A model generated the notes under the pieces. That model was not told where the DNA came from and did not search any database. It saw only the letters and a program-made list of their open reading frames with translations. From NCBI RefSeq assembly GCF_030028105.1, contig NC_092382.1, positions 6,152,215 through 6,216,214 of the forward strand: a stretch of DNA of 64,000 nt, written 5' to 3'. Each line of letters opens with the position of its first letter. Positions within the stretch are counted from its first letter, which is position 1. Positions 5,032 to 64,000 of the stretch are shown one piece after another. The translations under genes were made by a program, and so were the position numbers. Source of the stretch: Mobula birostris (lineage: Eukaryota).

Positions 5032-6087
5032 ATGTCTCACCAGCGAGTTCACACCGGGGAATGGTCATTCACCTGCTTGGACTGCGAGAAGGGATTCACT
5101 TGCTCATCTAAACTGAAGGTACATCAGCGAGTTCACACTGGGGAGAGGCCGTTCACCTGCTCAGACTGTGGGAAGGGATTCACTCAGTCATCTGAACTGA
5201 AGGTACATCAGAGAGTTCACACTGGAGAGAGGCCGTTCACCTGCACAGACTGTGGGAAGGGATTCACTCAGTCATTTAAACTAAAGGTACATCAGCGAGT
5301 TCACAGTGGAGAGAGGCCATTCACCTGCTCAGACTGTGGGAAGGGATTCACTCAGTCAGCCCACCTACAAGCCCACAGGTCAGTTCACACTGGGGAGAGG
5401 CCGTTTACCTGCTCGTACTGTGCAGAGGGATTCACATTGTCATCTCAGCTATTGAGACACCAGTCAGTTCACACCAGGGAGTGGCCATTCAACTGCTCAG
5501 TCTGTGGGAAGGGATTCACTCGGTCATCCCACCTACTGAGACACCAGTCAATTCACACTGGGGAGCGGCCATTCACCTGCTCAGACTGTGGGAAGGGATT
5601 CACTTGCTCATCTCAACTGAAGGTACATCAGCGAGTTCACACAGGGGAGAGGCCGTTCACCTGCTCAGTCTGTGGGAAGGGATTCACTCAGTCATCTGAA
5701 CTGAATATACATCAAGGAGTTCACACTGTGGAGAGGCCGTTTACCTGCTCAGACTGTGGGAAGGGATTCACACGGTCATCTGAACTGAAGGTACATCAGA
5801 GAGTTCACACTGGGGAGTGGCCATTCACCTGTTCAGACTGTGGGAAGGGATTCACTCGATCATCCCACTTACAAACACACCAGCGAGTTCACACTGGAGA
5901 AAGGCCGTTTACCTGCTCAGTCTGTGGGAAGAGATTCAGTCAGTCATACAACCTACAGAGTCACCAACGAGTTCACACTGGGGAGCGGCCGTTCATCTGC
6001 TCAGAATGTGGGAAGGGATTCACTCGGTCATCCCACCTACAAGCACACCAGCGAGTTCATTCTGGGGAGAGGCCGTTCACCTGCTGA
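5032..6087 (+). CDS. C2H2 zinc-finger protein (gene 1), 12 complete fingers, no effector domain
   Basis: 351-aa ORF of CxxC...HxxxH repeats with TGERP linkers; ends at FTC* beside a transposon insertion. Confidence 0.9.
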
Positions 6088-6719
6088 AGCCTGAGTTATA
6101 CCTCTGCATAGGTTCTACAGTGTAGCCTACCCATGCAAGTGGCCTATGCCATTGTGAGCATTTCTACTTATGCATTCGTGTGTCTTCGTCGCTCTGCCAA
6201 AATGCTAGTTGGCTTTGGGCTTTCTATCCCACTGTTTTGAATTGACTCGTGTTGAGCTGGAAATGATGGCGACTGCTGAGTATATCTTGTTGGAGTCGGA
6301 GCTAATAGACGTTGAACAGAAGTTACTTTTATTGAATTTACTGCAACGCGGAGTTTTTCCATTGTGCATTCCACGACGTCCAAACCGGTTTGTCAAAATT
6401 TCTTTCCACGAATTTGATGCCATTTGCAAGTCTTCATAGTCTGCCGACAAAGCGTGGTACAAATGTACATATTTTCTGACTTCCTCACTTAACCTCTCCT
6501 CGATTAGGTCCATTTTCCAACGTCGAAGCAACAGGAAATGCACTGCTACCAAGCGGACCGATCACAGATCCTGCAGTCTGCATCGCCGTGACACGTAGTT
6601 ACATTTTTGGGAAGGTGCATGTTAGGCTACGGCGTATGTTACGGCCCAGCATGCCACGTCAAGTATGCGTCTACGCGGAGCCTGCGACGTAGCTTCGAAG
6701 GAGAAGTACAATTCAGGCT
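6088..6719 (-). mobile_element. Non-autonomous PIF/Harbinger DNA transposon with MADF-domain remnant
   Basis: TIRs AGCCTGAGTTATACCTCT / AGAAGTACAATTCAGGCT; 3-bp TSD TGA/TCA; minus ORF MDLIEERLSEEVRKYVHLY...YEDLQMASNSWKEI is MADF-like. Confidence 0.8.
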
Positions 6720-6927
6720 TCAGTATGTTGGAAGGGATTGACTTGGACATCTCAACTACAGAGACACCAGCGAGTTCACACTGGGTAGAGGCTGATCGCT
6801 TGCTCAGACTTTGGGAAAAGATTCTCTCAGCAAAATCAACTTAATATACATCTTTGAGTTCACACTGGAGAGAGGCCGTTCACCTGATGTGAATGTGGGA
6901 AGCGATTCACGCAGTCATCTAACCTTA

Positions 6928-7687
6928 TGTAACTCTCGCTTCGGCTAGCAGCTTAATATAGGGGTTCATAGCCCCCCAGCCCGGCCAAACTTAAGAAATC
7001 TTGTTTGGGTGGAGGCTGTGTGATGTGTCCCCTGTTACAAATCAGTACTGTACCCTGAAATAAGAAACAGTCCACAATATGTGATAAAACGATTGAACTT
7101 TATAATTGTGACTTTGACTATGTGGTTAGTGAAGTAAACAAAAAAAAAGGAAAAACAGTCCACTCTCTCCATTCGCATCTTCTCATCTGTTCCCAGCAAA
7201 AAACCATGAAAATCTCTCTTCCAGACTTACAAGGAAGAATGTTTCTGTCATTGGATAGCCCCTCCCCTGAAAACCCTGTTATCTCTAGTTGTAACCTAAA
7301 CATTTCCCTTTTTGTGTTTGCTCTGTTCATGACATCCTCGTTAGATATTCATTTTGTCCATAATATTCTTTGCATCATATCGGACATGCGATTAGGAAAG
7401 AGGAGTCGGAATGCACGGTAATTATGGGAAAGATTGAAGGGAAGAAAGCAAGAGGAAGACAAATGATGATGGAGACAGCAGCCAGAGAACTGGAAATGAA
7501 TACCAATGAATTGATCCACTTGACCCGAAACAGGAGTGTGTGGGCCATGGCAGTCAAAGCTCAAACCGGGCACGGCACCTGATGATGATGATAATGAACC
7601 TAAACATTGCTGCTACAGACAAACCTCAGCAGTGAAACATTACAGAGAGGCCATTACGTTAGCAGTGAAACCTTACAGCATGTTACA
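6928..7687 (-). mobile_element. Solo LTR (Gypsy-type) in the 3' UTR of gene 1
   Basis: TGTAAC...GTTACA termini; splits a decayed finger; same insertion in genes 2 and 3; orientation inferred. Confidence 0.7.
7305..7596 (+). mobile_element. RTE-clade LINE 3' end with inverted 5' segment
   Basis: GHAIRKEE...MGKIEGKKARGRQ; (TGA)n tail; 12-bp TSD AACCTAAACATT at 7293-7304 and 7597-7608. Confidence 0.85.
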
Positions 7688-7896
7688 CTTCTGACACACT
7701 ACGGGGTTCACACTGGGAAGAAAGTTTCAGTAAGCTGCATGCCAGATGTTGCTGAATGCAATTTCGAGAGTGACTGTCGGTGCTGAACTCTGCAATTATT
7801 GCTGCTGCTCACCACACCCAGTTCTGCACCCTGGTCACTGGGCATGGGAGGAGTTTCTTCTACATACTCACCTTTAATGGTACTAGTTCTGTGACA

Positions 7897-7902
7897 AATA
7901 AA
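7897..7902 (+). promoter_or_regulatory. Probable polyadenylation signal of gene 1
   Basis: AATAAA in a context conserved at 29606-29611. Confidence 0.55.
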
Positions 7903-9625: not shown

Positions 9626-9628
9626 CAA

Positions 9629-9760
9629 GATTCCCGATGAAGGGTCTTCACCTGAAATGTTGATTCCCATCCATAGATGCTGCCTGACACGCTGAGCTCC
9701 TCCAGCACTTTGTGTGTATTTCTCTAGATTTCTAGCATCTGCAGGTCCTCTTGTTCCCAG
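9629..9760 (+). repeat. Penelope-like 3' repeat with decayed hammerhead core
   Basis: CCGATGAAGGGTCTTCACCTGAAATGTTGA followed by ATAGATGCTGCCTGA... Confidence 0.6.
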
Positions 9761-12573: not shown

Positions 12574-15500
12574 ATGTTTCGCTGGAACAAAGAGGTTTCC
12601 CCGGAACAATATCGCATACCTGGCAATGAACACGCTGGTAAAATCTGCAGAGCCGGAGTGTCGAGGTCCGAAATGAAGATCTGGGATCCGCCAACCACCA
12701 ATACGAGCCTTCGTGGATGATCTGACCATCACTACGGAGCCAGTGCCCGGTGCTGTGTGGATTCTGAAGGGGCTGGAAAGGGTGATGAGGTGGGCAAGGA
12801 TGTCCTTTAAGCCTGTAAAATCAGGATCTGTAGTGCTGGAGAAGGGGGAGAGCACAGGAGAAATTTCTCTATTGAGGACATTCCAACCCCTACCATCACA
12901 GAGAATCCTGTTAAAAGTCTTGGGAGGAGGTTTGATGCAACACTCAGAGACAAGGCAGCAATAAGAAATACCTGTGGGGAGTTTGAACAATGGCTGCAAG
13001 AGGTTGACAGGACTGGCCTTCCAGGGCGGATTAAGACATGGATTTACCAGCACGGTATACGACCCAGAATCCTCTGGCCACTGCTTCTCTGAGTTTCCAA
13101 TTCCCACTGTTGCTGAATTAGAGAGGGCAGTCAGCCGGTTCCTGCGAAGATGGCTGGGTTTACCAAGGAACATCAGCAGCATCGCTCTGTACAGGAGTAA
13201 CTGCAAACCAAGGCTCCTCCTGAAATCCATCGAGGAGGAGTTCAAGGTTTTGTGAGCAAGAGAGGTGCTGCAGTTTCGGGAATCTTCAGATCCACAGGTT
13301 GCCGGAGCAAGAGTGGTGGTGAGAACTGGAAGAGAGTGGAGAACGGAAGCTGCGGTGGAAGAAGCTGAGGCGCGACTGTGTCACAAAGTGCTGGTGGGGG
13401 CAGTCGCCAAGGGAAGAGTTGGACTCGGAGGCCTTGAAGTCCCCCAGTTTGACAAAGTACAAGGGAAAGAGTGACGAGAACTGGTCCAGAATGAAGTAAG
13501 GGCAGCTGTGGAGGAGGAGAGGACCAGCAGAGCGGTGGCAATGAAACAACAAGGAGCCTGGACCAAATGGGAGCGGGTGATCGAGCGAAAGATCACGTGG
13601 AATGATCTCTGGAAGGTGGGTTCACACCGCATCAGGTTCCTTATCCAGGCTGTTTCTGCCGTCCTTCCTAGCCTGTCCAACCTGCACTGCTGGGGCCCTG
13701 CAGAACGACCAGCTTGCCCCCTCTGTGAGAAGACCGGTACGCTAGAGCACATTCTGAGCTGCTGCCCCAGAGCTCTTGCCGATGGCCGTTATCGGTGGCG
13801 GCATGACCAGGTTCTCCGGACAATTGCGGAGACAATCTGCAGCACCCTTAACATCTGCCGGAAAACAAGTCTGGTCAAGAATACCATCTGCTTTGTCAAA
13901 GAGGGGGAAAGACCAACAGAACACCAGAAAGCAACCGGGTTGCTCTTCACTGCGCAGGACTGGAGCTAAAAGCAGACCTGGGAAAACAGCTGCAGTTTCC
14001 TCCCCACATCACAGAGATTACACTGCGGCCCGACACTGTGTTGTGGTCCGACTCATTGAAGCACGTCCCTATGCTGGGGCTAACCGTGCCGCGGGAAGAA
14101 CGCATGGAGGGGGTCTACGAGCAGAAAAGAGCCAAGTATGAAGATCTGAAGAACAACTTGCAGAGAAGAGGCTGGAGAGCAGGAGTGCTGGCCCGTGGAG
14201 GTCGGGTATCGTGGCTTTGCAGGCCAGTCGCTCTGCAAAGTACACACTGCACTTGGAGTCACGGGAGAGAGAAGAAGGAGAGCCATTTCTACCACCATAG
14301 ATGCGGCAGAGAAAGCGTCAAGATGGCTCTGGATAAAGAGGGCAGATCCGTGGGTAGCTGCTAGGACACAGGCCGGGGTCTGATCAACCCCGGCTGGGTC
14401 ACCTGGGCGAGAGTGTATGATGTTGAAAGACCTGAAACACCTGACGACCCCAGGTAACGTCACTGATGATGTGTCCCAGCTTAGCATCAGTCAGATGTTT
14501 CTGTAAGAAGAAGGTGGACAGATAATACTGATGGTTTTGGTGTACTTGCTAACACCCTTGCTGAGCTGGGACCTCCCATAAGCTGGGATGATCGCCTAGA
14601 TAATACTGGCAAGAAACTGCGAAGTAAGATGGCTAGACTGTTGCGAGAAATAAATTTTCCATCAAAACAAGGTTCTCATACCGATGGCTATTGGCTGCTG
14701 GCCACAGCCTTGTGCCAACAGTTGGAAAGGACCCGTGAGGTGGAACAAGAAAGAGATACGTCGAGGGATGAAGGAATGCTGTGAAGGAGAGGTGCTCAGT
14801 CATGATTGAGGTGGTGAGGACCAGTCAGAATAGGGCACAGGAAGCTGAGGAGAAGGGAATTAAGATGACATGTAGACTAGTGCAAATTAAACATCAGGAG
14901 GCGCTCACCGCCAGAATTATACCCCCGATGCCATGAAGATAAGATCAATGTTGTTATCCAAGGGAGATCCAGATACTTGGGATGGGGATATATGGTATGA
15001 TGATAATGGGTCCTTTGGTGAGGGGGAAACTGCTTTTCCCTCAGAACCATTGCAGGCTCGGCCTGCTGTGATGAATTCTCAAAAGACTGTACCTGGGCAG
15101 CCGGGAGTACAGACTCTCGAGTATAATGATAAGGAGCTATCTGAGATGGCTGTCCGTTTTAAGCAAAGGTCTGGGGAGTCGCTAGCGGAATGGTTACTCC
15201 GCTTGTGGGATGATAGAGGTGCTGGTATAACCTTTCACAGGTACAGTGGGACTGGGAGACTGCCGCTGAAGGCATTCACCGCTGAAGACAACAGGCCCTG
15301 GTCAATAGGATGTCTGGGGACTGGGACGCACAGTGGCGGCAGGGTCGAGATCCCGACCAAGAGGAATTCACCGGAGGGATGTACACGAGATTGGTGCGGT
15401 CAGCCGCCCCATCCATTCGGGCTGTGGCTCTTGCATTGTTGGGGCCCTCAGTTCAGGAGGATGTGGAGGACGTGACTAGTGCTTCGGCGAACCTTTCGGA

Positions 15501-15844
15501 CTGCAGGTGGTTAAACCCCGAGTCCGTTCGACACGGCTAACGAATATTGGAGGGGAAGGTACTAACGGTACCAATGGGACTAGGAAACCCGCCCTGACGC
15601 GCAGGGGAGATGTTCGCTACTCTTTTGAAAGCAGGCGTCGGTAAGGAGAAGATTGACGAGGTGCCGACTAGTGTGTTGTATGCTATGTATCGTGAGCACA
15701 TGGAAGCTGGGAAGACGCCGGTGGACCCTCCTGCTCCTCCTGCCTTCTCAGTACCCATCGTCAGCTGGATTGCAGGACGTAATGAAAAAGGCCATACAGG
15801 AGGAGACCGGGAAATGGCGGCCTCCTAAACCCTCCCGGACCTAG
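12574..15844 (+). pseudogene. gag: ERV gag (class III, ERV-L/Fv1-related), split by a Hero insertion and frameshifted
   Basis: MFRWNKEVSPEQYRIPG (12574-12623) rejoins WTDNTDG... at 14514; DPDTWDGDIW and KQRSGESLAEWLLRLWD motifs. Confidence 0.8.
12620..14512 (+). mobile_element. Hero (R2-superfamily, restriction-like endonuclease) non-LTR retrotransposon, 5'-truncated
   Basis: RQPPIRAFVDDLT RT motif, CPLC...LEHILSCC...YRWRHDQVL, TLRPD...LTVP.EE, EVGYRGF, ASRWLWIKR. Confidence 0.85.
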
Positions 15845-18670
15845 TGGGATGACCGGGTTCCCCCGACATATGAGATCCATTCGATGTGGACCCGAGGGCA
15901 CCGTAGGCGTTATATACCATTATGTCCATTGGGCTAAGGGAAATAATCAACGGACTGTTGCTCTGGTCGATACTGGGGCAGAACATACTGTGATCCCGGG
16001 AGACCCCAACAAGTGGAGGGGACCCGAGTATAATATTGAAGTGATGGGGGGGCGGGGGTGCCCTTACTAGGGCCCAGGAAGTAACGGTACGAGTAACGAT
16101 TGACAAAAACGTCCCCCCGTTCTGTGTCTGTCCTAATTGCTGTAACCACCGAGCGTATCTTCGGAATGAATGCGTTACGGGGAGTGCAATTGAAGACATC
16201 GTTAGGAACCTTTAGTTTTGGGATCCGGAGCATGCGAGTGGTAGTCGGAAGGGCAAAGTGGGAGCCCCTGTTTATCCCTCCACCGACGCAGATAGTGTCG
16301 GTTCCACAATACCGGATCCCAGGAGGTCACAAGGAAATGACTGAAACTATTGCCTCCTTGAAGCAAGCTGGGGTTATTCGACCCGCCACGTCCCCGTACA
16401 ATAGCCCGGTCTGGCTGATAAAGAAGCCAGACAGGTCCTGGCAAATGACTGTTGACTATCGACAATTGAATCGATACTCTTCCCCGTTGAGTTCTGCTGT
16501 GCCCGACATAGTGACGCTGGTGGATGATATTCCGGATGATGCAGATGGTCGATGGTATGTTGTTATTGATCTGGCCAGCGCCTTCTGTTCGATTCCCTTG
16601 GAGGAGGAATCACAGGAGCAGTTGGCTTTCACCTGGAACGGTCGGCAATATCCCTTCACTCGTTTGCCACAGGGACCTGTCCATAGTCCGACCTCATGCC
16701 GCGGGATAGTGGCAGGTGATCTGGAGACCTGCGCACTGCCCCCTAACGTCGGAGTTCACCACTACATCGATGATGTCATGTTACAGGGACCGGACGGGGA
16801 GGGTGTCGCAGAGGCGCTGCCGTCCCTGTTACAGTGTGTGCGAGAGAGGGGATGGGCTGTGAATGAAGATAAGGTGCAAGGTCCCAGTCAATCCCTGACG
16901 TTTCTGGGGATCCACTGGCATGCTGGGGAGAGGATTATACCGGAAAAGGTACGAAATAAAATACAAACCACAGCTACTCCCGCTAATAAGCAAGAAGCTC
17001 GGCGCTTTATGTGGTTATTGGTATATTGGAGAAGACATATTCCCGAATTGACTCTCCTACTGAAACCACTGTACGCGGTCACTCGTAAGAAGAGCAAACT
17101 CACATGGGGAGATGAGCAAAAGGAGGCATTCGAGCAGTCCAAAATGGCAGCTGAACGGGCTCATTCCCCTTTCACCTCGGGTCCCGGGGGCCCCGTATGA
17201 ATTACGGGTGTCTGTTCATGATAACGTGGCCGTGTAGAGTCTGTGGCAGCTGCAGAATGGGAGGAGGGTGCCCCTCGGGTTCTGATCACGCACTATGCCG
17301 GAGGCTGCCGGACGATATACCCCGTTAGAACGACAGCTCCTGGCTTGTTATTGGGCCCTGGTGGAAATGGAGTCCATCACGGGATCAGACTCCACGGTGT
17401 TGCGACCTGATTTGCCTATTATGTCCTGGGTGCTCGCCCCAGATACAAAGGTGAGGCAGGGGCGTGCACAGCAGTCATCCATATCGAATTGGAAATGGTA
17501 TATACAGGACCGGGCCGCTAAAGTATCCGAAGGAGTCAGCCGTCTTCAGGAACAAGTAGCCAGATGACCTATGACAGCGGGAACCGAGGAAGAGAAGGCG
17601 GCTCCCCCTCTCGAACCCTCCCCCATTCGATGGGGCCCGCCGTACGAGGAATTGACATCGGGTGAAAAGGCTGGTGCCTGGTTTACGGACGGCTGGAACC
17701 GTTGGGTGTGAGAGGGCCAACCGTGGAAGGCCGCTGCCCTGCGACCCTCGGACGATTCTCAGTTAATACAAGAAGGAGAGGACGGATCCAGTCAGCTGCC
17801 GGAACTTGTGGCGGTTACCCTGCCCTCTTCCCTCCCCACCAAGGAAATTAGAATATATACCGACTCGTTGGCGGTGGCTAATGGAATGGCTGTCTGTATG
17901 GTGAGCTGGCAGATGCACCAGTGGGCAGTTCATAATAAACCTATCTGGGGCAAGGAATATTGGCAGCAGGTATGACAAGAGGTGCGGAGGCGCGATATTT
18001 ATGTGTATCATGTGAATGCCCACCAGGAGGACATTACGACGCTCCACAATAGTCACGTAGACGGCTTGGCTGCGGTATCTGCTATTACAGTGCCTCTGGT
18101 TAGATGGGCCCACGAACAGTCCGGCCGTCCCGCGGAGAAGGGGACGTGAGAGAGGGACGAGACCATGGGATATCTTTGACGGTGGATGACTGTCGGACTA
18201 CTGTGTCGGAGTGTCCGATTTGTCAGCAAGTCAAGTCTCGCTCTGTCTCGCGTGGACCTTTTGGCCATATTAAGAGAGGCTCCGTACCCGGCGAAAGTAT
18301 GGCAGATTGATTACATTGGACTCCTGCCCCCACATAAGAATGATAAATATGTCTTGACAAAGGTGGACACTTATTCTGGATTCCTGTTGGCCAGACCCTT
18401 TCCTAGTACCAGTCAGGAGTCCACTATTCCGGGGTGGAATACCTGTTGTTACATTATGGCACATCCGAGGAAATACAGTCAGATAATGGATCCCACTTTA
18501 CAGGGCAACAGATCCAGGATTGGGAGAAAGAGCAAGGTATTTATTGGGTCTACCATATATTTAATTACCCCCAAGCAGCTGGCTTGATTGAACGATTTAA
18601 TGGACTTCTGAAGCAGCAGATTCAATTGATGACCCCCACCCACACTATGAAGGGGCAATGTATGTGTTGA
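15845..18670 (+). pseudogene. pol: ERV pro-pol (protease, RT, tether, RNase H, integrase), decayed
   Basis: ALVDTGAE; KKPDRSWQMTVDYRQLN; RLPQG; HYIDD; LERQLLACYWAL; WFTDG; CPIC, WQIDYIG, IQSDNGSHF, GLIERFNGLLK. Confidence 0.92.
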
Positions 18671-19699
18671 CAATGGTGAACATTCATTCTGGATTCCTGT
18701 TGGCCAGACCCTTTTCCAGTGCCAGTCAGCAGTCCACTATTCATGTTCATGCCATCAGGTTGGGGAGGGGGTACTCAGCCGGAATATAAGGTGCTGATCC
18801 TGGACCCTGAGGGTAGCCTCATCTTAGCACAAGAGGAAGTGATGGGTTGACAGGTCGGAACAGGAATGGGAATCAGAATGAAAATGTTTGGACAGCGGGA
18901 AGTTCCGCTCGGAGCGGATAGTTCAGAGATTAATTTATTATTAAAGCGGTATCCATGAACATCACCACGAAACAAAGAAAGAACATGAAAGTCGTTCAGA
19001 GAGAAAAATCAAACTCCCACCTCACCCCCTACATCAAAAAGAACGGCATCCCGATCATCAACCCCCAAAACCCACCCCTCCCGCACAAAAGGGAACAATA
19101 ACATCGACCCCCGCCCCCACCAATAAAAACAACCCGACCCCGCACAACTGCGGAGGGTCTGGTGTCACCAGTGTCGAGGCGGCCGCATCGGGAGCAGCGG
19201 ACACAACGGGCGACCCCGGAAGATTCACAGGTGAAGTGTCGCCTCACCTGGAAGGATGTTTGGACAACGGAGAGAGTTCGGCCGTCCGGCCCTTTCACTG
19301 TGACACCCCGAACTCCACATCAAATCCGTCCAAACCAATCTGGGTGAACTTTAATGACCAATAAATATAATTCCTCTCAGCGATCAGCTGTCTGAGTGAT
19401 CCCCTGACTCTGAGAGGAAGGGGTGTCTCTGGTCCACATTGTCAGGGTGTTGAGTTTACCAGGAGACAGAGACTGCAGGGACGAGAGGTTTTCTGTTGAC
19501 TAATACACTGTGTGTGGACCCCGCTGGCAATTCTGGTGTTGTGACCCGAATCGAGACAAACACCAGGCTGCCCACTCCACCAACAACACGGCACAGCCGG
19601 ACACATAACAGGGGACTTTACATCTCACAACACTGGATTCAGTGATGAAACCCGTGATTAATGTTGTTGTCCCACCGAAATCATCAGAAACGTCCATTC

Positions 19700-20156
19700 A
19701 GGTGTTTCTAAATACGAGCGCTCCCCCACAGGTGACGTCACACAGGTGCACGCACACGCCTGATGTCACACATGGGTTCCCGACACCAGGATCTGCCCTC
19801 ACGGTGTCTTACGTCACCCACGCGCTGGTGAGCTCGAGCTTTATCGGTTAAACGGCTGGGCTACTAATCACGTGACCAGCCCCTCCCCCATCGTTGTCAA
19901 CAGAGGATTCAGGAGCTGCGCTATAACCATTGGTGCGAAGCGATGTCAATCACTGGTTACAACCAATAGCCGAGGCGGACAAGGCGAGTGGGTGTTACCC
20001 CGCTGAATCCGTCGCCCGATCAAGTGACGACTCATCAGAGCGGAACAAATCCCAAAGTAAATGTCCGCTTTCTGATTTATTTCCATTTCCCTCCGAGGGA
20101 AGTTGGGGCGTTTGTGAAGCGTCTCCTGCGGCCGGAGTCTGATGTGTCGCTGAGAG
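19700..20156. promoter_or_regulatory. CpG-island promoter, likely bidirectional; putative exon 1 of ZNF gene 2
   Basis: ~19820-20030 is a reverse-complement homolog of ~20-230 (TCACGTGACC, two CCAAT boxes); TGACGTCA at ~19733; donor GAG|GTAGGA at 20157 (+) and GTAAGA at 19812 (-). Confidence 0.6.
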
Positions 20157-20459
20157 GTAGGAGGAGACCGCTCGGCCCGTCGGTTTGATGCCGGTTCCCC
20201 GGGGAGGGAGAGGATGAAGACGGTGAGAGAGGGGGCGGACAGGATGTTTGTCCCGGTGGGGACAGGAGGGGCTCATCTGTGGAAATGTCTGAGCCCACGG
20301 TGGTGGCGATTCACCACATTGGGGGGCAAACACCGGCAGACTGTTGCCCTGCAAGCGGGGCCAATGGTCCGGGCAAAGTGACAATTATTTGTGTTTTGTT
20401 GAGACTGTACCGGGAATATGGTGTAAAATCCCGCTCCCCACACTAACACGGGTTATATA

Positions 20460-26532: not shown

Positions 26533-27237
26533 GTACAAGCTGTCCAAGCACAGTGGGAACAGGGAATAATACCAAAGGATAGTATCAGACTGAGCCAGGT
26601 CACAGATTGGAGACGGCCAGAATGCCCCATTCTCACAGAGACAGGAAAAGCATCAGCGAGTTTGATGGTCATTACAGATACCAGTACCGTGCTCAGTTAG
26701 AAGATGACTTCTCTCTCCAACTTGTGTTGAACCTCACTTTAACAGTGTGAGGCCAGATCACACCTTGGCAACTCAAGTGATCTCATCTGAAATGTTGTCC
26801 TTCACTCACTGATGGATTTTGTAACTTTTTTTTTTCAGGTTGAAAAGGACAAGGGACTTATCTACGGGAATCTTGAACACAACAAGCCAGCTTTGCTGTC
26901 TCTGTCCACGTGTATAAGAAGTGGAGCAAGAGATTCACTCGATCATCCTTCCTACTCAGACAGTGGGGAGGATTCACTCGATCATCTGACCGACTGGCAT
27001 GCCTGTCAGTTTACACAGGGGAGAGGCCGTTCACCTTTTCAGACTGTGGGGATTCAAGGTCATCTCATTAAGGTACACCTGCAAGTTCACACTGGGACAA
27101 GGCCATTCCCCTATTCTGTGGGTGAGAGGTGATTCAGTCGGTCATCCCACCTGTGGACACACCAGTCAGTTTGCACTGGGCAGAGGCTGGTCATCTGCTG
27201 AATTTGTGGGGAAGGATTCACTCAGTCATCTGACCTA

Positions 27238-28695
27238 ATGGCTCACCAGCGAGTTCACATCGGGGAGCGGCCGTTCAGCTGCTCGGACTGTGGGGAAGGA
27301 TTCACTCAGTCATCTGACCTAATGGCTCACCAGCGAGTTCACATCGGGGAGCGGCCGTTCAGCTGCTTGGACTGTGGGAAGGGATTCACTTGTTCATCTA
27401 AGCTAAAGGTACATCAGCGAGTTCACACTGGGGAGAGGCCGTTCACCTGCTCAGACTGTGGGAAGGGATTCATTCAGTCATCCGATCTGAAGGTACATCA
27501 GCGAGTTCACACTGGGGTGAGGCTGTTCAACTGCTCAGACTGTGGGAAACGATTCACTTCGTCATCTCAACTTAAGGTACATCGGCGTGTTCACACTGGG
27601 GAGAGGCCGTTCAACTGCTCAGACTGTGGGAAAGGATTCACTTCATCATCTCAACTTAAGGTACATCAGCGAGTTCACACTGGGGAGAGGCCGTTCACCT
27701 GCTCAGACTGTGGGAAGGGATTCATTTCGACATCCAATCTGAAGGTACATCAGCGAGTTCACACAGGGGAGCGGCCGTTCACCTGTTCAGACTGTGGGAA
27801 GGGATTCACTTTGTTATCTCAAATACTGAGACACCAGTCAGTTCATACCGGGAAGTGGCCAATCACCTGCTCAGTCTGTGGGAAAGGATTCGTTAATTCA
27901 TCTCAACTGAAGGTACATCAGCGAGTCCACACTGGGGAGAGGCCGTTCACCTGCTCAGTCTGCGGGAAGGGATTCAATCAGTCATTTCACCTACTGACAC
28001 ACCGCGCAGCCCACACAGGGAAATGGCCGTTCACCTGCTCAGTCTGTGGGAAAGGATACATTAAGTCATCTGAACTGAAGGTACATGAACGAGTCCACAC
28101 TGGGGAGAGACCGTTCACCTGCTCAGTCTGTGGGAAGGGATTCATTTCTTCATCCCACCTGAACGTACATCAGCGAGTTCATACTGGGGAGAGACCGTTC
28201 ACCTGCTCAGTCTGTGGGAAGGGATTCATTTCGTCATCCAATCTGAAGGTACATCAGCGAGTTCACACAGGGGAGCGGCCGTTCACCTGCTCGGACTGTG
28301 GGAAGGGATTCAGTTTGTCTTCTCAACTACTGAGACACCAGTCAGTTCATACCGGGGAGTGGCCATTAACCTGCTCAGTCTGTGGGAAGGGATTCAATCA
28401 GTCACTTCACCTACTGACACACCACGCAGCCCACACAGGGAATTGGCCATTCACCTGCTCAGTCTGTGGGAAAGGATTCATTAAATTATCTCAACTGAAG
28501 GAACATCAGCGAGTTCACACTGGGGAGAGGCCATTTACCTGCTCAGTCTGTGGGAAGGGATTCATTTCGTCATCCAATCTGAAAGTACATCAGCGAGTTC
28601 ATACTGGGGAGACACCGTCCACCTGCTCAGACTGTGGGAAAGGATTCATTCAGTCATCCAACCTACAAGGACACTGGTCAGTTCACACAGGGTAG
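27238..28695 (+). CDS. C2H2 zinc-finger protein (gene 2), 17 fingers, no effector domain
   Basis: 485-aa uninterrupted finger array; acceptor at 26838. Confidence 0.92.
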   Translation: MAHQRVHIGERPFSCSDCGEGFTQSSDLMAHQRVHIGERPFSCLDCGKGFTCSSKLKVHQRVHTGERPFTCSDCGKGFIQSSDLKVHQRVHTGVRLFNCSDCGKRFTSSSQLKVHRRVHTGERPFNCSDCGKGFTSSSQLKVHQRVHTGERPFTCSDCGKGFISTSNLKVHQRVHTGERPFTCSDCGKGFTLLSQILRHQSVHTGKWPITCSVCGKGFVNSSQLKVHQRVHTGERPFTCSVCGKGFNQSFHLLTHRAAHTGKWPFTCSVCGKGYIKSSELKVHERVHTGERPFTCSVCGKGFISSSHLNVHQRVHTGERPFTCSVCGKGFISSSNLKVHQRVHTGERPFTCSDCGKGFSLSSQLLRHQSVHTGEWPLTCSVCGKGFNQSLHLLTHHAAHTGNWPFTCSVCGKGFIKLSQLKEHQRVHTGERPFTCSVCGKGFISSSNLKVHQRVHTGETPSTCSDCGKGFIQSSNLQGHWSVHTG

Positions 28696-28764
28696 AGGCT
28701 GATCACCTGCTTAGACTTTGGGAAGAGATTCTCTCAGCCAAATGAGCCAAATGTGCATCATTGA

Positions 28765-29375
<611 letters not shown>

Positions 29376-39780: not shown

Positions 39781-39969
39781 TACCTGCCTTTGTAAGAGGG
39801 TTGTACTTTGGCATTAGATACACTTCGATATTGAGTATATTGTTTATTGGAGCCGTTTTCTGCGTTAAAACAGCTGCTGAGTTTTCTATACAGACACTAA
39901 AAAACTGAGATATGGACATGGAACCAGTGTTTGAAAAAACTGTTAATGGCACCGAGATTACCCATAAAG

Positions 39970-40095
39970 CATTGCGTTATAAATTTCGCCGGCGCTGAAG
40001 CATCGATCATATGCGCAGGCGTGAAGGTTGGTGAATATCAGGCATGCGCGCAGTACACAAAGGCCTCGGGATCACGGCTGCAGGTTCGGCTGCAG
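39970..40095 (+). promoter_or_regulatory. Promoter and putative non-coding exon 1 of ZNF gene 3
   Basis: CpG cluster with NRF1-like TGCGCAGGCG and GCATGCGC; consensus donor CAG|GTAAGT at 40096. Confidence 0.6.
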
Positions 40096-40544
40096 GTAAG
40101 TGAGAATCTCGGGACGATGCTGTGACTCCGGACTCCGTGACCCGCAATCCCGGGACAGTCCTGCTCTCTTCCCTCTCTCTCAGCCCCACCATCCGTACAC
40201 GGGCCCCGGGGAGCTTCCGGCTGATGAGGGAATGGGAACCGATGGGTCTCTCAGACAGAGCTGAGCTCCAGCTGTCTAAATGCAAGGATCGGGAACTCGG
40301 AGAAAGGGAACAAAATCTTTTACATCAGCTGTTGTGAAAATCACCTTTGTTCTGCCTCCAGTCACAAACAAGAGAAAATCTGCAGATGCTGGAAATCCGA
40401 GCAACACACACAAATTGCTGGAGGAACTCAGCATTAGTACTCTTTTCCATAGATGCTGCCTGGCCTGCTGAGTTCCCCCAGCATTTTGTGTCTGTTGCTT
40501 GTTCCACCCCCTCTTGTTCTGGACTTTTCTACCCGTGAGGTCAT

Positions 40545-41013: not shown

Positions 41014-42820
41014 AACCGTATACGCTTATAACAATTACAGCACGGAATCAGGCCATCTCGGCCCTTCTAGTCCGTGCTGAACTCTTATTCTCACCTCGTC
41101 CCGCTGACCTGCACTCAGCCCTTAACCCTCCATTTTTTTCCTGTCCATATAGCTGTCCAATTTTACTTTAAATGACAACATCGAACCTGCCTCAACCACT
41201 TCTGCTGGAAGCTCGTTCCACACAGCTACCACTCTCTGAGTAAAGAAGTTCCCCCTCATGTTACCCCTAAACTTTTGCCCTTTAACTCTCAACTCATGTC
41301 CTCTTGTTTGAATCTCCTCCAATCTCAATGGAAAAAGCCTATCCACATCAACTCTATCTATTCCCCTCATAATTTTAAACACCTCTATCAAGTCCCCGCT
41401 CAACCTTCTACGTTCCAAAGAATAAAGACCTAACTTGTTCAACCTTTCTCTGTAACTTAGGAGATGAAACCCAGGCAACATTTTAGTAAATCTTCTCTTT
41501 ACTCTCTCAATTTCATTGACACCTTTCCCATAATTCGGTGACCAGAACTGTACACAATACTCTAAATTTGGCCTTAGCAATGCCTTATACAATTTCAACA
41601 TTACATCCCAACTCCTATACTCAATGCTCTGATTTATAAAGGCCAGCATACCAAAAGCTTTCTTCACCACCCTATCCACATGAGATTCCACCTTCAGGGA
41701 ACTATGCACCATTATTCCCAGATCCCTCTGTTCTACTGCATTCTTCAATGCCCTACCATTTACCATGTATGTCCTATTTTGATTAGTCCTACCAAAATGT
41801 AACACCTTACATTTATCAGCATTAAATTCCATCTGCCATCTTTCAGCCCAATCTTCTAACTGGCCTAAATCTCTCTGCAAGCTTTGAAAACCTTCTTCAT
41901 GATCCACAACTCCACCTATCTTAGTATCATCTGCATACTTACTAATCCAATTTACCTCCTCACCATCCAGATCATTAATATATATGACAAACAACATTGG
42001 ACCCAGCACAGATCCCTGAGGCACATCACTAGTCACCATCCTCCTATCTGACACGCAGTTATCGTCTCTGGCGTCTCCCATCCAGCCACTGCTGAATCCA
42101 TTTTACTACTTCGATATTAATGCCTAACGATTGAATCTTCTTAACTAACCTTCCATGTGCAACGTTGTCAAAGGCCTTACTGAAGTACATATAGACAACA
42201 TCCACCGCTTTATCCTCATCAACTTTCCTAGTAACCTCATCAAAAAGTTCAATAAGATTTGTCGAACATGACCTTCCACGCACAAATCCATGTTACCTGT
42301 TCCTAATCAGACCCTGTCTATCCAGATAATTATATATACCATCTCTAAGAATACTTTCCATCAATTTCCCCACCACTAACGTCAAACTCACAGGCGGATA
42401 ATTGCTAGGTTTACTCTTAGAACCCTTTTTAAACAATGGAACAACATGAGCAATAAGCCAATCCTCCAGCACCATTCTCATTTCCAATGACATTTGAAAT
42501 ATTTCTGTCAGAGCCCCTGTCATTTCCACACTAACTTCCCTCAAGGATTCTAGGGAATATCCTGTCTGGACCCAGAAACTTATCCAGTTCTATATTCCTT
42601 AAAAGCACCAGTACCTCCTCTTCTTTAATCATCATACTTTCCATAACTACCCTTCTTGTTTCCTTTACCTTACACAATTCAATATCCTTCTCCTTGGTGA
42701 ATACCGAAGAAAAGAAATTGTTCAAAATTTCCCCCATCTCTTTCGGCTCCGCACATACCCATCCACTCTGATTCTCTAAGGGATCAATTTTATCCCACAC
42801 TATCCTTTTGCTATTAATAT
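41014..42820 (-). mobile_element. CR1 ORF2 RT and 3' end
   Basis: VPQGSVLGP, SKYADDTK, RPNLEYCVQFWSP; same subfamily as 62115-62812. Confidence 0.92.
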
Positions 42821-45800: not shown

Positions 45801-46934
45801 CCCATCCAGGCTCCCATACAAATTTCTTTTAAATGGTGAAACTGAGCTCATATTCACCACTTGTGCTGACATCTCATTCCACACTCTCACGACCATTTCA
45901 GTAAAGAGCTTTTCCAAATGTTCCCGTTAAATTTTCACCTTTCCCACTTACCCATGACATCTGGTTGTCATCTCACCCAACCTCAGTGGAAAAAAATGCT
46001 TGCATTTACCCTATCTGTACCCTCATAATTTTGTATACTTCCAACAAATCCTCAAAGCAATGTATAATTTCTTGTTTATGTTTGGAGCCTTTTTTGGTGT
46101 ATAAGATGATGAGGGGCATTGATCATGTGGATAACCAGAGGCTTTTTTTCCCAGGGCTGAAATGGCTAACACGAGGGGGCATAGTTTTAAGGTGCTTGGA
46201 AACAGATACTGAGGGGAAGTCAGGGGTAAGTTTTTTACCCAGAGAGTGGTGGGTGCGTGGAATGCACTGCCGGCTATTTGTGTGAGTATTTCAGTTCCTG
46301 TGGGGCCAGTCGCCCATGCAGCTAAGTGCGAACAGGGAATAATACCAATGGAGAGAGTCAAACTGAGCCAGGTCACAGATTGGAGATGGCAGAAATGCCC
46401 CATTCTTATAGAGACAGGAAGAGCATCAGAGAGTTTGATGGTCATTCCAGATACCAGCACTGTGCCCAGTTAGAAGATGATTTCTCTCTCCACCTTGTGT
46501 GGAACTTCACTGTAACAGAGTGATGCCAGATCACACCTTGACAACTCAAGTGATCTCATCTGAAATATTGTCCTACACCCATTGATGGATTTTGTAAATA
46601 TTTTTACAGGTTAAAAATGACAAGGAATTTGTCTACGGGAATCTCGAACACAACACGACAGTTTTGCTGTCTCTGTCCAGATACTTAAGAAGTGGAGCAA
46701 GGGATTCACTCGATCATCCTTCCTGCTGAGACTGTGGGGAGGGACTCACTCGGTCATCTCAACTGAAGGTACATCAGCAAGTTCACACCGGGACAAGGTC
46801 ATTCACCTGTTCTGTGTGTGAGAAGGGATTCAGTCAGTCTTCCAACCTGTGGACACACCAGTTAGTTCTCACTGGGCAGATTGCTAGTCATCTGCTGAAT
46901 TTGTAAGGAAGGATTCACTCGGTCATCTAACCTA

Positions 46935-48476
46935 ATGGCTCACCAGCGAGTTCACACTGGACACCGGCTGTTCACCTGCTTGGACTGTGGGAAGGGATTC
47001 ACTGAATCATATAAGCTACTGAGACACTGGTCAGTTCACACTGGGGAGCAGCCGTTCACGTGCTCAGACTGTGGGAAGGGATTCCCTTGTTTCTCTAAAC
47101 TGAAGGTACATCAGCGAGTTCACACCGGGGAGCGGCCGTTCACCTGCTCGGACTGTGGGAAGGGATTCACTGAATCATTTAACCTGCAGATACACCGGTC
47201 AATTCACACCGGTGAGAGGGCATTCACGTGCTCAGACTGCGGGAAGGGATTCGCTTGCTCATCCCAACTGAAAGTGCATCAGCGAGTTCACACTGGGGAG
47301 AGGCCGTTCACCTGCTCAGACTGTGGGAAGGGATTCACTTCGTACTCTGTTTTACAGAGACACAGGCAAGTTCACACTGGGGAGAGGCCGTTCACCTGCT
47401 CAGTGTGTGGGAAGGGATTCACTCGATCATCCTACCTACAAGCACACAGGTCTGTTCACACTGGGGAGAGGCCGTTCACCTGCTCCGACTGTGGGAAAAG
47501 ATTCACTCGATCAGCCCAACTGAAGGTACATCAGCGAGTTCACACTGGGGAGAGGCCGTTCACCTGCTCAGACTGTGGGGAGGGATTCACTCAGTCATCT
47601 GAACTGAAGAAACACCAGCGAGTTCACACTGGAGAGAGGCCGTTCACTTGCTCAGTGTGTGGGAAGGGATTCACTCGGTCATCCCACCTACTGACACATC
47701 AGTCAGTTCACACTGGAGAGAGGCCGTTCACCTGCTCAGACTGTGGGAAGGCATTCACTCGGTCATCTGTCCTAGAGAGACACTGGCGAATTCATGCTGG
47801 GGAGTGGCCATTCACCTGCTCAGTCTGTGGGAAGGGATTCACTTGCTCATCCCTACTGAAGATACATCAGCGAGTTCACACTGGAGAGAGGCCGTTCATC
47901 TGCTCAGACTGTGGGAAGGGATTCATTCAGTCATCTGAACTGAAGGTACATCAGCGAGTTCACACTGGAGAGAGGCCTTTCACCTGCTCAGACTGTGGAA
48001 AGGGATTCACTTCGTCCTCTCAACTTAAGATACATCAGCGAGTTCACACTGGAGAGAGGCCTTTCACCTGCTCAGTCTGTGGGAAGGGATTCACCTCGTC
48101 ATCTCAACTTAAGGTACATCAGAGAGTTCACACTGGAGAGAGGCCGTTCACCTGCTCAGACTGTGGGAAGGGATTCACTTGCTCATCTCAACTGAAGGTA
48201 CATCAGCGAGTTCACACTGGGGAGAGGCCGTTCACCTGCACAGACTGTGGAAAGGGATTCACTTCGTCCTCTCAACTACTGAGTCACCAGCGAGTTCACA
48301 CTGGAGAAAGGCCATTCACCTGCTCAGACTGTGGGAAGGGATTCACTCAGTTGTCTCATCTACAGAGACACCAGCGTGTTCACACTGGGGAGAGGTCGTT
48401 CACCTGCTCAGTGTGTGGGAAGAGATTCACTCGGTCATCCAACCTACAGAAACACCAGCGAGTTCATACTGGGTAG
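46935..48476 (+). CDS. C2H2 zinc-finger protein (gene 3), 18 fingers, no effector domain
   Basis: 513-aa uninterrupted finger array; acceptor at 46609. Confidence 0.92.
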
Positions 48477-48615
48477 AGGCCGATCTGCTGCTCAGACTTT
48501 GGGAAGAGATTCTCTCAGCCATCGCCACCAAATGTCCATCATTGAGTTCACACTGGGGAGAGGCCGTTCACCTGCTATGAACTTGTGAAGCAATTCGCTC
48601 AGGCATCTAACCTTA

Positions 48616-59911: not shown

Positions 59912-62010
59912 TGTAGCTGTGTGCTACACACAACACTAAAAATAACCACACGTAGTCGGTGAGTTAGAGTTGTGATAAAAGAGATTTATTCAAACTTCGT
60001 AGCCTGCTTTAAAGCCTTCCCGTTCCCGCCCTTCTTGGGCGGGACTGCTGTGGGGAATGCATAACGGCAGACCCTTTCCGCGCATGGGATTTCCCCCCTG
60101 CTGCTGAAGATGGCCTGGCGCCCTTTTTGGGGCCGGCCTCTCTGCCGGCGCGTGCTGGTTCATGTGTGCTAGAAAGTGGGTCGCCACATAACCACGCCCC
60201 CCAGAACCGGTGATACATCCCCCAATGTCCAGAGTCTGGATCGGCCTCTGTTTGGGAGGTCTGCCCCTGCGCCGCGGTGCCTGAGCCTGGACCGGCTGCG
60301 CCAAGTCCACATGGGCCGGTTTGAGTCGGTCCACCGTGAAAACCTCCTCTCCCCCCCCCCCCCGATGTCCAGCACGAACGTGGACCCGTTGTTCCTGATC
60401 ACCTTAAAAGGCCCCTCGTAGGGCCGCTGTAGCGGTGCCCGGTGTCCGCCCCGTCATACAAAAAGAAACTTACAGTTCTGCAGGTCTTTGGGTACGCAGG
60501 TCGGGCTCTGTCCGTGCTGTGAAGTGGGGATGGGGGCCAGGTTACTGAGACGCTCCCGTAGTCTGTCCAGGACTGCTGCGGGTTCTTCCTCTTGCCCCCT
60601 TGGGGCTGGTATGAACTCTCCTGGGACTACCAGGGGTGCGCCGTACACCAACTCAGCCAACGAGGTGTGCAGATCCTCCTCGGGCGCTGAGCGAATTCTG
60701 AGCAGGACCCAGGGAAGTTCGTCCACCCAGTTAGGCCCCTCCAGGCCGGCCATGAGAGCCGACTTCAGGTGACAGTGGTAGGTATTTGTGTGGTGTAGCT
60801 GTGATCCTAAAAGGTTGGCCATAGTTGACCACAGGCAGGAGGTGAACTGGGCTCCCCTGTCGGAGGTAATGTGGGCTGGTACCCCAAAGCGTGCTACCCA
60901 GGTTGCGATCAGTGCTCGGGCGCAGGATTCGGAGGTGGTGTTGCTGAGCGAGACTGCCTCTGGCCATCTGGTGCACCAGTCTATCATAGTTAGGAGGTAC
61001 CATGCTCCTCGTGACACTGGCAGGGGCCCCACGATATCCACATGGATGTGGTCGAACCTCTGGTGGGTGGGCTCGAACCGCTGCGGCGGAGCCTTGGTGT
61101 GCCACTGCACCTTGGCCGTTTGGCACTGCATGCACGTTTTGGCCCATTCACTGACCTGTTTACGCAGTCCATGCCACACGAACCTGTTGGCGACCAGCCG
61201 GACGGTTGTCCTGATGGAGGGATGCGCTAAGTTGTGAATGGATTCGGAAACCTGCCGGCGCCAGGCTGCTGGGACGATGGGGCGGGGTTGGCCGGTAGCT
61301 ACGTAACACAGTAGGGTCCTCTCACCTGGGCCTACGGGGAGGTCTTGGAGCTGCAAACCGGAGACTGCAGTCCTGTAACTGGGGATCTCAGCGTCTGCCT
61401 GCTGTGCCTCTGCCAGCGCTGCATAGTCCACCCCCTGGGACAGGGCCTGTATGGTAGGTCTGGATAGTGTGTCCGCCATGACGTTGTCCTTTCCCGAGAC
61501 ATGCCGGATGTCCGTCGTATATTCGGAGATGTTGGACAGATGTTGCTGCTGGTGGGAAGACCAGGGGTCGGACACCTCAGTGAACGCAAAGGTAAGCGGT
61601 TTGTGGCCTGTGAACGCAGTGAAGGGCCTATCTTCTAAGAAATATCTGAAATGCCGGATTGCCAGGTATAGTGTCAATAGCTCCCGGTTGAAAGCACTGT
61701 ATTTGAGTTCGGGTAGTCGTAGGTGTTTGCTGAAGAATGCCAGGGGTTGCCAGCGACTCTCGATGAGTTGTTCCAGCACTCCACCAACTGCTGTGTTGGA
61801 TGCGTCCACCGTGAGGGCAGTAGGAACGCCCATTCTGGGGTGCACTAGCATCGCGGCGTTTGCTAAGGGTTCTTTGGTTTTAACAAAAGCGGCTGCGGCC
61901 TCTTTATCCCAGGTAATGTCCTTGCCCTTACCCGACATCAGGGTGAACAGGGGGCGCATGATTCGGGCTGCTGAGGGGAGGAAACAGTGGTAGAAATCCA
62001 CCATACCCAT
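59912..62010 (-). mobile_element. Ty3/Gypsy element 3' half (RNase H, integrase, 3' LTR 59912-60188)
   Basis: 518-aa ORF with VDASNTAVG, HIHVDIVGP, TSDRGAQF; LTR TGTGGC...GCTACA with AATAAA. Confidence 0.92.
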
Positions 62011-62112
62011 GAAACGTCAACTGTACTTCTTCCTTGAGATGCTGCCTGGCCTGCTGCGTTCACCAGCAACTTTGATGTGTGTTGCTTGAATTTCCAGCAT
62101 CTGCAGAATTCC
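62011..62112 (+). repeat. Penelope-like fragment with the 3' half of a hammerhead core
   Basis: GAAACGTCAACTG followed by the family tail. Confidence 0.55.
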
Positions 62113-62114
62113 TC

Positions 62115-62812
62115 ATGTTTAGGAATGATGGTGCTTAGTTCTCTGAAGGTGGAATCTCATGTGGATAGGGTGGTGAAGAAAGCTTTTGGTTTGCTGACCT
62201 TTATAAATCAGAGCATTGAGTATAGGAGTTGGGATGTAATGTTAAAATTGTACAAGGCATTGGTAAGGCCAAATTTGGAGTATTGTGTACAGCTCTGGTC
62301 ACTGAGTTACAGGAAAGATGTCAACAAAATAGAGAGAATACAGAGGAGATTTACTAGAATGTTACCTGGGTTTCAGCACCTGAGTTACAGAGAAAGGTTG
62401 AACAAGTTCGATCTTTATTCTTTGGAGCGTAGAAGATTGAGGGGGGACTTGATAGAGGTATTTAAAATTATGAAGGGGATAGATAGACTTGACGTGGATA
62501 GGCTTTTTCCTTTGAGAGTAGGGGAGATTCAAACAACTGGACATTAGTTGAGAGTTAAGGGGCAAAAGTTCAGGGGTAACACGAGGGGGAACTTCTTTAC
62601 TCAGAGAGTGGTAGCTGTGTGGAACGAGCTTCCAGTAGAAGTGGTAGAGGCGGGTTCGATTTTGTCATTTAAAAAAAATTCGATCGGTATATGGACAGGA
62701 AAGGAACGGAGGGTAGAGGCAGGTAGATGTGACTAAGTGAGAGTAAGCATTCAGCATGGACTAGAAGGGCCAAGATGGCCTATTTCCATGCTGTAATTGT
62801 TATATGGTTATA
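62115..62812 (+). mobile_element. CR1 3' end
   Basis: ORF 62077..62547; tail TGTTATATGGTTATATG. Confidence 0.9.
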
Positions 62813-62968
62813 TGAACTTGCGGGTGTCTCTGTAGGTTGGACAACTGAGTGACTTCCTTCTCAGACTGAGCAGGTGAACGGCCTCTCCCCAGTGTGAACT
62901 GACTGGTGTGCTTGTAGGCTAGCCAGCTGTGTGAATCCCTGCCCACAGACTGAGCAGGCGAATGGCCG

Positions 62969-64000
62969 CTATGCAGTGTGAACTGACTGGTGTCTCCGTA
63001 GGTGAGATGCCTGAGTGAATCCCTTCCCACAGTCTGAGCAGGTGAACGGCCTCTCCCCAGTGTGAACTCTCCGATGCACCTTCAATTGGGATGACTGAGT
63101 GAATCCCTTCCCACAGTCTGAGCAGGTGAACGGCCTCTCCCCAGTGTGAACTTGCTGGTGTCTCTGTAGATCAGATGATCGAGTGAATCCCTTCCCACAG
63201 ACTGAGCAGGTGAACGGCCTCTCCCCAGTGTGAAATCGCTGGTGTTTCAGTAGGTCAGATGACTGAGTGAATCCCTTCCCACAGACTGAGCAGGTGAATG
63301 GCCTCTCCCCAGTGTGAACTCGCTGATGTACCTTCAGTTTAGATGAGGAAGTGAATCCCTTCCCACAGACTGAGCAGGTGAATGGCCACTCCCCAGTGTG
63401 AACTGACTGGTGTTCTTGTAGGTGAGCTGACTGTGTGAATCCCTTCCCACAGTCTGAGCAGGTGAACGGCCTCTGCCCTGTGTGAACTTGCTGATGTATC
63501 TGCAGATGAGATGACTGAGTAAATCCCTTCCTACAGACTGAGCAGGTGAATGGCCTCTCCCCAGTGTGAACTCGCTGATGTATCTGCAGATCAGGTGATC
63601 GAGTGAATCCCTTCCCACAGTCTGAGCAGGTGAACGGTCTCTCCCCCGTGTGAAGTCTCTGATGCACTGTCAGTTGAGATGACGAAGTGAATCCGTTCCC
63701 ACAGTCTGAGCAGGTGAACGGCCTCTCCCCAGTGTGAACTCTCTGATGTTCCTTCAGTTGAGATGACGAAGTGAATCCCTTCCCACAGTCTGAGCAGGTG
63801 AACGGCCTCTCCCCAGTGTGAACTCGCTGATGTATCTGTAGATCAGATGATCGAGCAAATCCCTTCCCACAGTCTGAGCAGGTGAACGGCTTCTCCCCAG
63901 TGTGAACTCGCTGATGTGCTTGTAGGTTAGCTAACTGTGTGAATCCCTTCCCACAGTCTGAGCAGGTGAATGGCCTCTCCCCAGTGTGAATTCGCTGATG
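62969..64000 (-). CDS. C2H2 zinc-finger protein (gene 4), 5'-partial, at least 12 fingers
   Basis: Frame is open from the window edge (344 codons) to TAG; same [15 protein letters not shown] backbone. Confidence 0.9.

Follow-up and report, generated by a model that had tools for sequence, protein, structure and literature searches.

What do long arrays of C2H2 zinc fingers encode when no effector domain is visible before them, and how do such arrays change? The question is raised by a 64-kb stretch of the Mobula birostris genome (NC_092382.1, positions 6,152,215 to 6,216,214; hereafter the window), which lies on a 112-Mb contig (C17) and holds four zinc finger (ZNF) genes, A1 to A4, among retroelements. 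The original prediction, made from the letters alone, had described these genes as a KRAB-independent, recombination-diversified recognition repertoire, possibly for surveillance of transposable elements (TEs) or endogenous retroviruses (ERVs). Our preferred reading, which taken as a whole is tentative, is that they belong to a real ray family of finger-only ZNFs, with fingers under purifying selection and gain and loss of whole units, whose products likely bind repeats such as retroelements without a silencing domain.

Finger arrays and gene model

A six-frame scan of the window recovered 65 C2H2 matches (CxxC-12-HxxxH) at an 84-bp step, and repeat analysis gave 84 as the tandem period, which confirmed the four predicted arrays. 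They lie at 4990-6060 (13 matches), 27196-28854 (19 matches) and 46724-48467 (20 matches) on the plus strand, and at 62894-63964 on the minus strand (13 matches, with the array cut by the window edge). As in classical (Kruppel-type) C2H2 proteins, the TGE(K/R)P linkers are conserved and fingers are spaced at 28 aa, and the array open reading frames (ORFs) were matched by PF00096 and PF13465. Among 408 distinct fingers, amino-acid entropy was highest at helix positions -1 (2.7 bits), +3 (3.0), +6 (2.6) and +5 (2.0) and only 0.02-0.6 bits at F, L and most linker positions, so variation is concentrated in the recognition helix, as had been proposed. Helix position +2 was Ser in 85% and +6 was Val, Ser or Ala in 69%; since +2 is almost fixed, the variable contacts are -1, +3 and +6. 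The predicted recurrence of helices between genes was also found, with five seven-residue helices common to window genes (CSSKLKV, QSSELKV, LSSQLLR, CSSQLKV and SSSQLKV) and RSSHL present in arrays 1 and 3. The description of the backbone as nearly invariant was too strong: window fingers differed by 19% overall and by 12-13% in the backbone at the DNA level, about the same as non-coding leaders (12.5%); the backbone is conserved as protein, though far from invariance as DNA.

Each array sits within a single terminal exon behind a conserved acceptor, and the first 190-550 bases of this exon consist of decayed fingers in no fixed frame. The layout is a CpG-island promoter, often in a head-to-head pair, a terminal exon that starts with decayed fingers, an ATG in a broken finger, and 8-31 intact fingers, the last of which is usually followed at once by a stop. 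It was followed in 28 genes, the complete genes left after a redundancy filter that one or two near-duplicate pairs passed. The array frame relative to the acceptor was spread over frames 0, 1 and 2 (11, 8 and 9 genes), two genes were open from the acceptor, and the start ATG lay inside a broken finger in 25, with a stop codon within that start finger in 19. At least 70% of the fingers were retained in the ORF in 24 of the 28, the stop followed within five residues of the last finger in 18, and 6 internal units were degenerate vs 416 intact. Across 19 genes, the ratio of nonsynonymous to synonymous change (N/S) was 0.83-0.87 over the 20 codons preceding the ATG and dropped to 0.36-0.49 over the 20 that follow it. 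A wider set of 62 acceptors in the DNA fetched comprised 56 followed by an array, two cut by the locus edge and four without an array despite enough sequence; three of the 56 opened into fingers.

In A1, a CpG island at 1..450 (plus strand; observed/expected CpG 0.84-0.99) is the likely promoter and non-coding exon 1, with a candidate donor at 258|259 read from the sequence rather than from RNA; it forms half of a head-to-head pair whose partner promoter lies directly left of the window. Behind the acceptor at 4484|4485, the leader (4485..5031, plus) holds decayed, frameshifted fingers, is out of frame with the array and has an in-frame stop just 5' of the ATG. The ORF (5032..6087, plus) begins at an in-helix ATG and encodes 351 aa with 12 intact fingers. 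The predicted start at 5032 is thus the start codon of A1, with the exon itself beginning at 4485 and the likely promoter at 1-450. For A2, the plus side of a second CpG island (19800..20300), a head-to-head promoter pair, is likely exon 1, with candidate donors at 20156|20157 and 20222|20223 (plus); on the minus side no array was found within the window. Its leader of decayed fingers (26839..27237, plus; acceptor 26838|26839) carries a TGA in the start finger (27199-27201), and the ORF (27238..28695, plus; 485 aa) consists of half a start finger and 17 intact fingers with an HTG-stop end. A3 has a CpG island at 39950..40250 (plus) as likely promoter and exon 1, a candidate donor at 40095|40096, a leader of decayed fingers at 46610..46934 (plus; acceptor 46609|46610) and an ORF at 46935..48476 (plus; 513 aa) with 18 intact fingers and an HTG-stop end. 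The window holds the 3' part of the A4 ORF (62969..64000, minus; 12 of 14 fingers); beyond the window edge its ATG lies at 174 bp, its acceptor at 581 bp and its promoter at about 8.5 kb (loci L033 and L072). Dead fingers were also seen 3' of the stop codons of A2 (28696-28915) and A3 (48477-48580), so these ORFs are flanked by decayed fingers on both sides. The second promoter type (20031-20300) was 97.7-99.6% identical in 5 of 7 nearby copies.

Use of the acceptor could be followed in three sequencing runs from other species that were only guessed to be RNA. In their contigs, read depth stepped up 53-, 13- and 4-fold at 46609 and spliced loose ends were found at the A3 acceptor in all three, and a control run had no such rise. 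One of these loose ends also led to a 168-bp exon spliced to the acceptor, with 229 genome matches followed by GT; some of the genes have it, 5' of their finger exon (for example L042:8967-9226), and it is partly translated in a public stingray gene model. As an effector exon it was rejected: every one of the 26 rows read (25 loci; 7 more loci were left unparsed) had a stop in the entering frame, 3 of the 26 carried frameshifts, N/S was 0.7-0.9 and Pfam gave no match. These presumed RNA runs support splicing at the acceptor in relatives. The 168-bp exon had no match in the window, so exon 1 of the four genes remains a candidate drawn from CpG islands and donor motifs.

Searches for other effector domains gave no match. 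The Pfam scan covered 18 proteins, 12 of them non-finger frames chosen from 77 listed, and found no effector domain in the acceptor-proximal frames or ORFs scanned. KRAB (PF01352) was found in 0 of 58 genome candidates, in a search that the control genomes could not confirm to work, and the entering frame was closed or shifted in all four window genes, which leaves them outside the domain definition of KRAB-ZNFs. SCAN, BTB and ZAD had no Pfam match in the A1 and A2 acceptor frames or among the best 25 of 33 A3 families, with no genome-wide search made. No KRAB-SSXRD-SET module preceded the arrays, as the ORFs held fingers only, SET likewise without a genome-wide search; nor was a FiNZ or KRAB-like N-terminal domain seen, as ORFs began 7 residues before the first linker and the upstream exon had stops and an N/S near 1, although no FiNZ profile was run. 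Introns of 10 genes had no coding-like block in common, and 14 shark and ray protein models had no non-finger domain in common. The predicted lack of a visible KRAB, SCAN, BTB or SET exon was thus upheld for the frames and ORFs scanned, and so was a KRAB-independent, finger-only layout, given the closed or shifted entering frames, the in-helix ATG and the drop in N/S at that codon. We consider it highly probable that the genes are finger-only. A conserved lead finger acting as a recruiter was not seen either, the first intact fingers being as divergent as the middle ones (0.29 vs 0.27; 24 genes). The introns of one gene subfamily (L080-L084, L088 and L091) contain long minisatellites in which frames of 170-415 aa are open.

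Selection, finger turnover and family size

At sites outside the search pattern, the ratio of nonsynonymous to synonymous rates (omega) was 0.07-0.10 for the F/L core and 0.33-0.44 for the linker, so purifying selection on the fingers appears strong at sites that the search pattern does not fix. These estimates are rough and ignore conversion, which breaks the tree assumption. At contacts -1, +3 and +6, the uncorrected ratio of nonsynonymous to synonymous differences was 1.26-1.8. Once CpG rates were fitted, with loss of CpG at about 7.7 times the rate of other transitions, pooled omega in nearest-neighbour pairs was 0.89-1.08, or 1.28-1.40 when multi-base codon changes were counted; 30 of 58 single-base changes at -1 involved CpG. 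Position +3 alone stayed above neutral after correction (35 changes observed vs 18 expected, and 92 vs 59; omega 1.6-1.9). By these rough estimates, the excess change expected at contact residues was seen only at +3, and the three sites pooled were near neutral. Contact sites held 0.26-0.45 of the diversity (median 0.37 with four sites; 0.33 with three), and median finger identity within a gene was 0.83.

Whole-finger turnover is fast among recent copies. Twelve A3 copies, whose flanks were on average 0.5% apart (maximum 1.3%), carried 8 helix strings and 18-22 fingers, and two of them were broken; a sister gene, whose eight copies were 0.4% apart, had 8 helix strings and 15-30 fingers. Copies were compared as assembled, so assembly error in repeats may account for some string differences, and turnover alone does not show selection. 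In the window, finger distances within and between genes were hardly apart (0.194 vs 0.196; 70 of 500 permutations reached the difference), and across 26 genes fingers were slightly closer within than between genes (0.171 vs 0.191; 0 of 500 permutations). The closest cross-gene finger distance climbed with gene divergence (3, 5, 6 and 7 differences), so the helices shared between genes mostly reflect shared descent. That shared helices arose mainly by exchange of fingers between genes was not shown: of 106 gene pairs diverged by 10-14%, only 3 had a finger in common to within one base. Diversification by recombination, as originally predicted, is thus supported where genes gain or lose whole fingers and where ectopic exchange takes place near promoters, but lacks support for swapping of fingers between genes.

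The exchange near promoters is marked by a 230-bp block just inside intron 1, which occurs at 349..592 and 40143..40386 of the window (both plus), is homogenised across gene lineages and, in 9 of 12 local copies, showed 100% identity along 205 bp; promoters and introns around identical blocks differ between genes. A 99-mer of the block had 387 exact genome copies, of which the first 100 listed were all on C17 at 0.4-8.5 Mb, and a 31-mer of its core had 975 matches, C4 and C5 included. Distant copies were 83-97% identical and had common alleles missing from the 387-copy type, and contigs of relatives mostly had the older base at 40290. Identity between lineages stops at insertion boundaries, and A3 changes lineage inside the block, where the second copy forms a junction between one promoter type and an A1-type intron. 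We infer recent ectopic conversion over a constrained core, a local conversion sweep, with selection alone as the rival. The block was rejected as a structured RNA (no Rfam match above gathering score, folding z -0.09) and as a coding exon (its ATG frame has 37 aa, and distant copies have frameshifting indels). The stretch of A3 from 39950 to 46609 is a mosaic, one promoter type being joined to the A1-type intron inside the homogenised block. Next to the two copies, at 600-710 and 40394-40504, lies a long hairpin made of two inverted pieces of a common repeat, with microRNA-family scores far below gathering.

The acceptor motif had 942 exact matches in the 4.0-Gb genome and none in the control. 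In 264 kb around and including the window, which held 14 arrays, many as head-to-head pairs, the motif recovered 9 of 13 acceptors; 942 matches at this recovery scale to roughly 1,400 genes, and we estimate a family of at least 942 and roughly 1,000-1,400 genes. Of 100 acceptor matches listed (of 942), 85 lay on C17 and 15 on C4-C6. Among evenly spaced 10-kb samples of C17, 5 of 20 held at least 9 fingers, with 0 of 6 beyond 82 Mb, and 87 of 95 scored NACHT hits lay on the same contig at 0.1-97 Mb. Judged from these partial lists (100 of 942 acceptors among them), the family is apparently concentrated on C17, where NLR genes are numerous too. The only protein match of the A1 leader was a stingray (Hypanus) gene model. 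The highest array identities among the protein hits listed were 70-75% (Heterodontus and Mustelus); these searches were crowded by generic ZNFs, and no close ray relative of the arrays stood among the matches listed. No paper describing a ray finger-only family was found in a literature search, whose coverage excluded subscription journals.

Possible targets and competing explanations

Known systems offer partial parallels (PMC11603059 and PMC8455134 are further literature). Like the cyprinid FiNZ-ZNFs of the zebrafish chromosome 4 long arm (PMC10547256; PMC5690287), the ray genes are present in hundreds of lineage-specific tandem copies in one chromosome region, with NLR genes mixed in and no KRAB, and they may share some excess change at contact residues (PMC10547256). 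FiNZ-ZNFs have an N-terminal domain, whereas the ray ORF begins inside a broken finger without one, and their expression at genome activation and repression of young TEs were shown in zebrafish (PMC10547256), whereas the ray family is known here from sequence. The same source counts 315-3,586 ZNF ORFs per genome in eight cartilaginous genomes in its supplement, and a search of its main text gave no hit for shark or cartilaginous. ZNF146/OZF is likewise a protein of C2H2 fingers only and binds LINE-1 (PMC8896011), but it is a single conserved gene with 10 fingers, in contrast to about a thousand fast-changing ray genes. With PRDM9 the ray genes share an 84-bp finger minisatellite, whole-finger turnover and helix-focused diversity (PMC5519329); unlike PRDM9, their ORFs lack KRAB, SSXRD and SET, and within a gene their fingers have an identity of about 83%, being hardly closer there, in the window, than between genes. 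The ray contact share compares with 0.33-1.0 for complete PRDM9s (the sites used there are not listed in the section of PMC5519329 consulted), and its median is below most complete PRDM9s in Table 1 of that paper, so the genes are only partly PRDM9-like.

In KRAB-ZNF clusters, all fingers lie in one terminal exon and genes arise and die in clusters. The ray genes resemble these tetrapod clusters in both respects and in their TGE(K/R)P linkers, and differ in that no KRAB exon was found and the acceptor frame is closed. The family is thus like FiNZ- and KRAB-ZNF clusters in layout and turnover and lacks the domains that define each. Automatic shark and ray models called 'zinc finger protein 271/850-like', which include the Heterodontus, Mustelus and Hypanus matches above, offer no more than a name and join fingers to unrelated or TE-derived sequence.

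Retroelements do stand among the arrays, as the original prediction had noted: RVT_1, rve, RNase H and endonuclease domains were matched in ORFs among the scanned proteins. A broken ERV-like element neighbours the genes at 14891..18760 (plus; RVT_1 at E 1e-20, rve at E 2e-4, below the cut-off), with reverse transcriptase (RT) and integrase in separate frames and no long terminal repeat (LTR) pair in a self-comparison of the window; its motifs lead us to assume a resemblance to class III (ERV-L-like) elements. A fragment of an LTR retrotransposon pol gene at 59990..62016 (minus; RT_RNaseH, Integrase_H2C2 and rve), presumably Gypsy-type, is a further neighbour.

Under the preferred reading, unequal crossing-over between 84-bp units would change finger number and order, and whole genes would be copied, inverted and recombined along the chromosome by ectopic recombination focused near promoters. 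Most variation in the helix would stem from CpG mutation and relaxed constraint, and selection for change would show at +3. The proteins would be translated from the in-helix ATG and, as the conserved linkers suggest, would bind DNA; repeats would be their targets, and repeat transcription or recombination might be damped by occupancy or by finger-bound partners. That most family genes are functional seems probable. That repeats or TEs are the main targets is plausible yet uncertain, and surveillance of TEs or ERVs is proposed by analogy with FiNZ-ZNFs (PMC10547256). A bolder version, in which more than 1,000 finger-only proteins lost their front end, restarted in a dead finger and silence or shield retroelements without a KRAB-like domain, renewed by finger slippage and an intron-1 recombination hot spot, appears doubtful.

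Several observations weigh against the preferred reading. The runs that show splicing are of guessed type and from other species, and N/S in the first 24 leader codons, read in the entering frame, was 0.53-0.55, lower than a purely non-coding leader would suggest; this may be the trace of an older coding front end. Leaders hold 0-6 upstream ATGs and most genes have C at -3 of the start, so translation may be poor, and tandem fingers are reported to stall ribosomes in zebrafish (PMC11620358), which could limit ray finger-only proteins. The near-neutral pooled contact omega lends an arms race weak support, and the residues favoured at +2 and +6 suggest loose specificity. RT-like sequence, searched with queries taken from the window, made up 16% of the DNA flanking the window, 13% along C17 and 10% of 14 samples drawn from other contigs, an excess so modest that retroelement neighbours carry little weight for surveillance. 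L1 also stayed inactive in HEK293 after loss of ZNF146 (PMC8896011).

The loose +2 and +6 residues would suit functional finger-only binders of nucleic acid with other targets, such as host promoters, satellites, their own gene clusters or RNA, an explanation that we regard as unlikely but worth keeping in view. Purifying selection and a finger-only layout are compatible with any target, KRAB-ZNFs often bind satellites, promoters and other KRAB-ZNF genes (PMC10547256), and the intron-1 core, present in 975 places, could serve self-regulation; against this, targets that change would account for the fast turnover of helix strings and the excess at +3 better than host promoters, which stay fixed. 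Somewhat less likely, the family is a by-product of a duplication-prone chromosome arm, with neutral minisatellite gain and loss of fingers, a minority of working copies and drift of the rest to decay. Recombination occurs in any repeat with an 84-bp unit, the contact sites taken together are close to neutral, and C17 has amplified its NLR genes as well (87 of 95 scored NACHT hits). Broken copies also occur, namely 2 of the 12 for A3, 4 of the 28 genes sampled and, out of 62 acceptors, 4 without an array. Against such drift, long open arrays persist in 24 of the 28 diverged genes although their leaders lost frame, internal units are overwhelmingly intact (416 vs 6), and F/L omega is about 0.1.

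The low N/S of the first leader codons hints at a formerly coding front end and could speak for a hidden effector exon (KRAB-like, FiNZ-like or SET), spliced in frame in an unsampled tissue, in which case the family would consist of ordinary effector-ZNF or PRDM9-like genes. Cryptic acceptors may lie close to the ATG, 3 of 56 array acceptors open into fingers, and 3 of 26 rows of the upstream exon have an in-frame Met after the stop. We hold this very improbable, given the closed or shifted entering frame in all four window genes, intron comparisons without a conserved coding-like block, KRAB in 0 of 58 genome candidates (with uninformative control genomes) and 14 shark and ray models without a common non-finger domain.

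Meaning for ray genomes and ZNF families

It is not yet understood how large ZNF families function in the absence of KRAB and TRIM28 (PMC10547256), and cartilaginous fishes are the outgroup to bony vertebrates. With a defined gene model, comprising start codon, exons and shared 5' sequence, pooled knock-down and chromatin immunoprecipitation of tagged proteins can be designed. With the homogenised intron block, a ray genome provides a natural setting in which to test where ectopic recombination is concentrated. If it is true that finger-only proteins repress repeats, an effector domain would not be required for this, which would bear on the origin of the KRAB and FiNZ systems.

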